NCBI GenBank assembly: GCA_963758495.1 | Contig: CAVWVI010000004.1 | Span: 1-64,000, forward strand | Direction of reading: 5' to 3' | DNA from: Oligoflexia bacterium | GTDB taxonomy: Bacteria > Bdellovibrionota > UBA1018 | Length of the DNA: 64,000 bases | In this document: positions 40,964 through 41,323 of the stretch, one piece after another | Layout: each line of letters opens with the position of its first letter | How positions within the stretch are numbered: position 1 is the first letter of the stretch | Notes under the pieces: model-generated | What the model was told of the DNA's origin: nothing | The model's input: only the letters and a program-made list of their open reading frames with translations | Databases searched by the model: none | Position numbers and translations under genes: made by a program

Positions 40964-41194
40964 CGCTGTCTCCCTAATGTGTCGACCTATCGTTGGAGCC
41001 TTGACAATCGACTATAGGAGAGCGTCCGTCAAGGATTTATTCCGAATGGACCACCCGACTTCGGGAGCTAGATTGAAACCAGCACCACCTAGATTTCTCT
41101 CACTCATTACAGTAAATGTAGGCTAATAAATTCTTTTCAAACGCCTTCAAATGACATCCTCAAAATAGAAAAATGACAAAGTTTCCCACGCAGC

Positions 41195-41323
41195 TCACCG
41201 CGCACACACGACGTAGTAGTAGAAGAGGGCGTAGCTGCGGTAGTAGTAGCCGACATTGCCATTGGTGCCATTGAAGAGGAAGGCGAGGCTGGCACTATTA
41301 GGAAGCACCGACGACGACCAAAA
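41195..41323 (-). other. Putative DGR variable region (VR)
   Basis: 32 consecutive NNY codons at 41210-41305 (25 end in C), between TGGTCGTCGTCGGTG and GTGTGTGCGCGGTGA. Confidence 0.72.

Follow-up and report, generated by a model that had tools for sequence, protein, structure and literature searches.

The 64,000-nucleotide stretch of DNA analysed here (the window) is positions 1 to 64,000 of contig CAVWVI010000004.1 in assembly GCA_963758495.1, from an Oligoflexia bacterium of the Bdellovibrionota. It contains a gene of 600 codons on the minus strand (41195-42997) whose 3' end very likely is a genuine variable region (VR) of a diversity-generating retroelement (DGR). As judged from its sequence, the gene is a DGR target by every test applied, yet it stands outside any active DGR as assembled. 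The interpretation favoured here, with moderate confidence, is of a genuine VR, likely frozen as its cassette left, at the tip of a predicted substrate-picking lectin domain on a predicted exported ubiquitin ligase of the RING-between-RING (RBR) type. An earlier note, made from the nucleotide pattern, had proposed a DGR variable region without a nearby template. That proposal was sustained by relatives, in which adenine-biased template repeats (TRs) adjoin a reverse transcriptase (RT) and avd; the accompanying suggestion that a TR and RT act here in trans was not, neither being present in the assembly.

The codon pattern that drew attention to the gene is as it had been described. Codons 565-596 (41305-41210, minus strand), the rewritten part of the VR, are 32 consecutive codons ending in a pyrimidine (NNY), 25 in C and 7 in T, and the run is unlike the rest of the gene, where the second longest is 10. 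The flanks are TGGTCGTCGTCGGTG at 41320-41306 and GTGTGTGCGCGGTGAGCTGCGTGGG at 41209-41185, followed by two TGTCATTT copies at 41178-41171 and 41156-41149; the VR as a whole (41195..41320, minus strand) extends from a constant WSSSV block through the stop codon. Such a run might arise with no DGR at all, through the make-up of the protein (Tyr, Phe, Asn) or through locally GC-rich DNA, and many of the encoded residues do have NNY codons only. However, for a 31-codon segment, given the residues it encodes and the codon usage of the genome (C3 0.175, Y3 0.527), the probability of 31/31 NNY was 6e-6 and that of at least 24/31 NNC was 1.4e-10, so that composition does not explain the run. Outside adenines the VR bases also agree with real TRs, and relatives with the same domain sit in intact cassettes. 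An origin without a DGR is thus extremely improbable, being already refuted by the composition-corrected codon test and the base agreement.

Among 2921 open reading frames (ORFs) of at least 150 amino acids, longer NNY runs were found in six: four simple tandem repeats, one probable shadow frame and one unexplained. Four of the next five runs by length belong to paralogs of the C-type lectin (CLec) domain of the target gene. The window VR (31/31 NNY, 24 NNC) is as fresh as ten cassette-resident VRs, which have 23-29 NNY and 12-25 NNC of 28-31 codons, and is the freshest among the 17 paralogs scored in the genome. An internal run of 35 pyrimidine-ending codons, which is not a simple repeat, lies in a 675-residue ORF (L201, G000:C1:261489-263516) without a Pfam match.

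Relatives in the family and metagenome contigs carry intact cassettes with this CLec domain, consisting of target, avd and TR, with the RT on the opposite strand. Rewriting of CLec gene ends by a DGR is shown in these relatives by their TR-VR pairs, in which mismatches fall largely at adenines: 16/18 and 22/24 in G001, 13/13 in G047, 17/17 in G041, 14/18 in G042 and 17/20 in G058, and likewise 17/22 in L070, 21/24 in L072, 15/19 in L076 and 23/23 in L077. The TR closest to the window VR is that of L077, from another organism; over 100 aligned bases the two differ at 19/33 adenines versus 6/67 other positions (Fisher p 4e-7). True TR-VR pairs have 0-5 non-adenine mismatches in 17 of 18 cases (the exception, the hand-cut L085 pair, has 14), versus 9-27 for the best foreign pairs. 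We infer that a TR similar to the L077 one rewrote the target gene in the recent past.

Comparisons among paralogs and orthologs bear on when and where the gene has changed. Relative to the paralog at C1:352098, there are 6, 7 and 2 changes at codon positions 1, 2 and 3 in 16 VR codons, versus 5, 3 and 17 in 40 upstream codons (contrast p 0.003). Two paralog pairs in the genome show this signature of rewriting after duplication (p 0.003 and 0.004), which would favour a target still rewritten at a distance. Between orthologs that share the gene's domain fusion, divergence is concentrated in the VR: the target protein and P0002 differ at 11/29 VR residues versus 106/532 elsewhere (p 0.02), and every one of the 11 swaps involves residues from the 15 that AAY codons can yield; P0005 and P0009 differ at 7/27 VR residues versus 28/489 others (p 0.001). 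Four near-identical cluster pairs were uninformative, their VRs and bodies both being identical, and no shorter allelic proteins were found at E 1e-10 among 533 candidates.

The position and flanks of the VR are those of a DGR target. It is placed at the C-terminus of the CLec domain, in keeping with DGR targets, whose VRs end a CLec or Ig domain, and at its 3' end a GCGTGG motif (41186..41191, minus strand) and a T-rich tract (41142..41185, minus strand) match those of cassette-resident targets, together forming a putative sequence like the initiation of mutagenic homing (IMH) element. GCGTGG stands at or just past the stop codon in 10/12 cassette-resident targets, and some TRs carry the same hexamer. 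The T-rich tract is common to related cassette-resident targets and holds both TGTCATTT copies, the second within a GAT..ATTTGAAG motif that is also common to related targets; a GC-rich hairpin was not seen by eye in this tract. Past the stop codon, approximately 95 bases of spacer (41096-41191, minus strand) align with the target-to-avd spacer of L072, with a score of 35 against a maximum of 29 in 200 shuffles, as if the target gene formerly stood before avd; four other spacers scored within the shuffle range.

The cassette itself was not found in this genome. As the earlier note had reported for the window, no matching TR is present, nor is there one elsewhere in the assembly; and the near-copy beside an RT that it predicted was not recovered by short-word BLASTN of the genome. 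An adenine-tolerant scan of the assembly with the whole and half VR gave a best candidate with 28 non-adenine mismatches in 126 bases, and a TR profile search of the assembly gave 15 matches, all of them VR-like gene ends with 0-5 AAY words versus 9-16 in TRs. The clade RT is absent from the assembly, whose five RTs all read as group II intron type and match the clade RT profile at E 2.6e-17 or weaker, in comparison with 1e-158 or better for clade members. Avd was not found in the assembly either (best profile E 0.24); two four-helix-bundle genes at C4:168.7k and C4:172.8k were considered as Avd and rejected, as they belong to the 23S_rRNA_IVP family and have no clade Avd profile score. The one pattern match in a viral collection was a CLec gene with neither an RT nor a TR inside 5 kb.

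From these results the window VR is probably stranded, the cassette having left the genome, and the data agree better with a target left behind by a patchy, mobile cassette than with present-day action in trans. The CLec domain is found in 57/116 genomes of the order versus 7/127 genomes of the class for the clade RT, which shows that DGR surveys anchored on the RT miss most targets in the lineage. Genome G008 (95% complete, 20 contigs) has 12 copies of the CLec domain and no RT. In G042, which has an intact cassette, seven dispersed copies are mostly decayed, with 4-20 non-adenine mismatches to their own resident TR (4/52, 8/87, 10/93, 13/86, 15/86, 19/90 and 20/89). One fresh-looking remote target was identical across 21 contigs.

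That the gene is instead still being rewritten in trans, by a cassette on an unassembled contig or plasmid, is possible but considered rather unlikely. The freshness of the VR, retention of GCGTGG and incompleteness of the assembly would each agree with an active remote target, and remote targets are well known for DGRs in the accessible text of PMC5758913. Genomes G010 and G038, both fragmented metagenome-assembled genomes, have VRs 1-3 non-adenine mismatches from a TR of another genus, with no TR or clade RT found there. In addition, the body of the CLec domain groups with its own orthologs and not with the L077 target, yet the VR goes with the L077 TR, a combination in keeping with remote rewriting at one time or another. 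However, TR, RT and Avd were not found in the assembly in six independent searches, and a template that would suit this VR does not fully fit any other gene in the genome. Paralogs C3:235983 and C3:243227 have near-identical VRs, with 5 residue differences over 30 codons, a pattern expected if copying took place once rewriting had mostly ceased. The same VR is also present in both the Logan and the NCBI/ENA version of the protein, weak evidence in that they probably come from the same sample.

The RT is convergent on the TR in 11/11 distinct cassettes of this clade (L053, L054, L061, L062, L067, L068, L070, L072, L077, L086 and L088). Among 75 loci having an RT and a TR-VR pair, the RT lies opposite the TR in 17, of which 13 loci (the 11 distinct cassettes) are of this clade and four are others. 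Near-compatible TR and VR types are spread over different genera and families, which suggests horizontal movement of the DGR clade.

The protein that carries the VR has an unusual composition. Its parts, in order, are a signal-like peptide, a Tudor-like domain, a helical region, RING1, IBR and Rcat fingers, a Ser-rich linker, and the CLec domain with the VR. The likely start is codon 14 (position 42958), where homolog P0002 also begins, and the signal-peptide-like N-terminus (42896..42958, minus strand), called from the sequence by eye and hydropathy, has a basic start, a hydrophobic core and an S-Q-A end. The small beta domain that follows (42758..42892, minus strand) has weak Tudor-fold matches (Foldseek E 0.004-0.03) and is confined to the target protein, P0002 and P0007.

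Three zinc fingers on the minus strand define the predicted ligase module. RING1 (residues 196-248, 42254..42412) matches Pfam zf-RING_UBOX at E 6e-7, over the cut-off, and aligns to RING1 of human ARIH1; the IBR finger (residues 276-325, 42023..42172) matches Pfam IBR at E 3e-8, also over the cut-off; and the Rcat-like finger (residues 354-402, 41792..41938) has Cys367 (41899-41897) aligned with the ARIH1 catalytic cysteine, C357, and invariant in 8/8 homologs. The module aligns to ARIH1 in one stretch (E 7e-10 with the single sequence, 1.4e-12 with a profile), and the top Atlas matches for the region are eukaryotic RBR clusters (0.93), with which Foldseek agrees. The gene is therefore predicted, by these alignments and its N-terminus, to encode an exported RBR-type ubiquitin ligase. 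This RBR-CLec fusion recurs in a paralog on the same contig, in genomes G084 and G053, and in three database proteins, and the target of the intact G042 cassette carries an IBR/Rcat-like finger.

IBR matches occur in 9/127 genomes of the class, all in the Bdellovibrionota family of the target, and of 20 distinct IBR proteins in that family six have the CLec tail and several others have ankyrin repeats. RING1-IBR-Rcat proteins without a lectin tail include L266 (G000:C5, ~154.5-157.7 kb), L272, L268, L264 and L257, and further L265, L270, L267, L269 and L260. Several of these have ankyrin repeats and signal-like starts, some have the canonical cysteine-x-histidine Rcat motif, and the set are candidate bacterial RBR ligases in their own right. 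A second zinc-finger family was also seen, in which a RING-like finger leads straight into one IBR/Rcat-like finger and then a conserved helical domain (L208, L204, L019, L022, L017, L071, L197, L255, L258, L259 and L261); the Atlas clusters nearest to it consist of unnamed proteins from haptophytes and giant viruses.

The C-terminus of the target protein is, by its model, a C-type lectin fold of the Lcl_C/DUF1566 kind (residues 448-600; 41198..41656, minus strand). The last 153 residues were modelled by AlphaFold with a predicted local distance difference test score (pLDDT) of 94.2. A Foldseek search with the model gave no match at E 0.001, and the fold was settled by a wide search, in which the best agreement was with Bdellovibrio Bd2740 (Z 12.2), followed by intimin (10.3), InvE (10.2), Legionella Lcl (9.9), TvpA (8.5) and Mtd (7.9). 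Pfam Lcl_C (DUF1566), a common DGR target domain in the accessible part of PMC11661182, is matched by 41/50 aligned relatives, though not by the target sequence alone. Swapping of the CLec domain as a module was considered and is not supported: in a tree of 55 domains (153/299 columns) RBR-fused and cassette-resident rows need two changes, and a single origin stays compatible.

CLec loci number approximately 20 in the genome and are at all stages of decay: 18 have a complete end, one is truncated and one is split by an IS607-like element. Nine of them carry RING, RBR or RING-plus-Rcat-like fingers, and the others ankyrin, Sel1, phosphatase or unknown domains. Signal-like N-termini were found in 16/17 genes scored (hydropathy 2.3 or more). 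The genome has four secretins; VipB of the type VI secretion system was not found in it. Searches of the genome for a ubiquitin-conjugating enzyme (E2) and for an ATP/ADP translocase were empty, but control searches also gave no signal.

The nearest solved folds raise a second possibility, in which the VR is genuine but the lectin serves surface binding or delivery, as in Lcl, intimin or Bd2740, and the RBR part is inactive or acts on something other than the ligand. Bd2740, intimin, InvE and Lcl are adhesin tips, the same CLec domain is fused to unrelated parts (phosphatase, Sel1, WD40 and domains without known identity), the domain is missing from 14 of the family's 20 IBR-bearing proteins, and the Rcat histidine is absent. 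However, the zinc ligands and catalytic cysteine are invariant in eight homologs at 36-78% identity, the RING/RBR-type fingers recur in nine of the roughly 20 CLec genes, and ankyrin repeats, a usual substrate-binding module, fill the partner role in several RBR proteins without CLec. This second reading is regarded as unlikely.

Other CLec loci differ in arrangement. L202 (G000:C2:121193-123970) is a RING-CLec gene in pieces, with the IS607-like element (a resolvase and a TnpB-like ORF) inside its VR. A second CLec-tipped gene in the window (7845-10544, minus strand; 899 residues) has a decayed VR and an N-terminal family of unknown kind that is common to five paralogs of 770-850 residues. 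On a metagenome contig, L071/L084 is a 978-residue RING/IBR-like protein that bears four CLec domains in tandem, no two with the same VR; two more CLec ORFs come after it, and this arrangement is present twice. The genome as a whole (G000) has 15 RING-finger matches, with C2H2 zinc-finger-like repeats near the C1 end and C4 start, a heavy load of eukaryote-like domains. The target gene is set in a mobile-rich stretch of the window (24489-25883, 26568-27635, 31126-39407 and 43704-46697) containing a group II intron RT interrupted by an internal stop, several transposases, AbiEi/AbiEii, a helix-turn-helix-Fic gene, a nucleotidyltransferase pair, a recombinase fragment and, just downstream of the target, a DEDDh exonuclease.

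The interpretation favoured above, of a frozen VR on an exported ligase, suggests the following scheme. A family-specific DGR rewrites the last 30-odd codons of CLec genes from the adenines of AAC and AAT codons in its template, as the TR-VR pairs of relatives show. The cassette is patchy and would move between lineages, whereas CLec genes would multiply by duplication, be joined to RING, RBR, ankyrin, Sel1 or phosphatase domains, and be retained after cassette loss. The distribution of CLec domains and cassettes is as observed; a history of a mobile, transient cassette with variants fixed, copied and decaying is what it appears to reflect. Once the protein is exported into a eukaryotic cell, a host E2-ubiquitin would dock on RING1 and its ubiquitin would pass to Cys367, while the choice of substrate would fall to the variable lectin surface. 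More tentatively still, and with somewhat less than even confidence, this uncultured family may export RBR/RING ligases with a DGR-diversified lectin domain, whose frozen variants form a repertoire against eukaryotic host targets; visiting cassettes would generate binder variants, and selected ones would be frozen and spread as ligases with different targets.

Several findings weigh against this interpretation. The cognate TR of the window VR was never found, and the match to the L077 TR covers its first 100 bases only, leaving four extra codons and the 3' end unaligned; the extra codons are not unusual, because 3-base indels occur in four true TR-VR pairs. The excess at codon positions 1 and 2 is significant in just two of eight paralog pairs, and two of the seven VR swaps between P0005 and P0009 involve E or W, residues out of reach of AAY codons. 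At 92.1% completeness in five contigs, with several contig ends within insertion sequences or repeats, the assembly could lack a cassette, and the freshness of the VR is what an active target would look like. For the ligase, the IBR-Rcat part of the model is of low confidence (pLDDT <50), the second Rcat zinc site looks reduced, and the His after the catalytic cysteine is not kept, homologs having Ser, Lys, Phe or Thr. A His at the second position past the cysteine and a complete second zinc site are common in the RBR family but not universal, and the His is present in other RBR-like proteins of the bacterial family, e.g., L266 and L272. The finger of the G042 cassette target is below the Pfam cut-off (E 0.0012), in a frameshifted gene within which the contig starts. 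Host, export route and ligase activity are predictions.

As stranded and remote DGR targets are already known, the VR alone is ordinary; its cargo is not. Within a single bacterial family, several genomes encode RING1-IBR-Rcat proteins, and in some of these proteins a binding domain written by a DGR forms the tip. Were they active, they would be the first tie of DGR hypermutation to the substrate choice of a ubiquitin ligase, and would point to a eukaryote-associated lifestyle, so far unrecognised, among relatives of bacterial predators. If the interpretation is true, they would be the first class of RBR ligases from bacteria and also form a natural library of protein degraders open to retargeting. 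The enzymes are small and single-chain, which offers them for in vitro testing. A literature search for DGR-targeted ligases, bacterial RBRs or such Bdellovibrionota proteins found none within a limited coverage that left most subscription papers outside. The supplements of PMC8144416 contain no RING, IBR or Bdellovibrio terms in 13 files, and files 9 and 12, outside that search, may list such targets.

Compared with known ligases, the module resembles the eukaryotic RBR E3 ARIH1/HHARI (PDB 5udh, 4kbl) in the order RING1-IBR-Rcat, the zinc ligands and the position of the catalytic cysteine. It differs in being bacterial, with a signal-like peptide, no Ariadne domain seen and a variable lectin tail, and in its missing His and reduced second Rcat zinc site. 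Bacterial effectors with eukaryotic E3 domains, likewise, include the RING/U-box ligases SnRING, NleG and LubX (PMC13720258); the accessible text of that 2026 review describes none with a DGR-variable domain and states that bacterial counterparts of RBR ligases were not yet identified.

As a DGR, the system resembles those with CLec (DUF1566/Lcl_C) targets, so far as the accessible text of PMC5758913 and PMC11661182 describes them, in having a C-terminal VR between constant GC-rich blocks, an AAC-rich TR, avd, an IMH-like motif, indels opposite AAC runs and an optional hairpin. It is unlike them in that no cassette is in this assembly, the target is fused to an RBR module, and the clade RT faces the TR in every distinct cassette, although RT and TR on opposite strands are noted as occurring in PMC5758913. 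Leftover targets have been described, in the available portion of PMC4891356, in Treponema denticola isolates that lack RT and TR, with multiple gains and losses proposed; there too, the VR differs from a foreign TR mainly at adenines and a core element is missing. Those targets are lipoproteins of one species with near-identical TRs, whereas here the nearest TR belongs to a different organism and eukaryote-like enzyme domains are part of the targets. Comparable in how they work are cyanobacterial DGR CLec modules grafted onto kinases and orthocaspases, for which the accessible part of PMC7517822 proposes a role in substrate selection. In both cases a variable CLec domain is attached to many N-terminal domains, with dispersed paralogs having remnant TR homology; the cyanobacterial proteins are mostly of cytosolic signalling, whereas the present ones have signal-like peptides and RING/RBR domains that would need a ubiquitin system.
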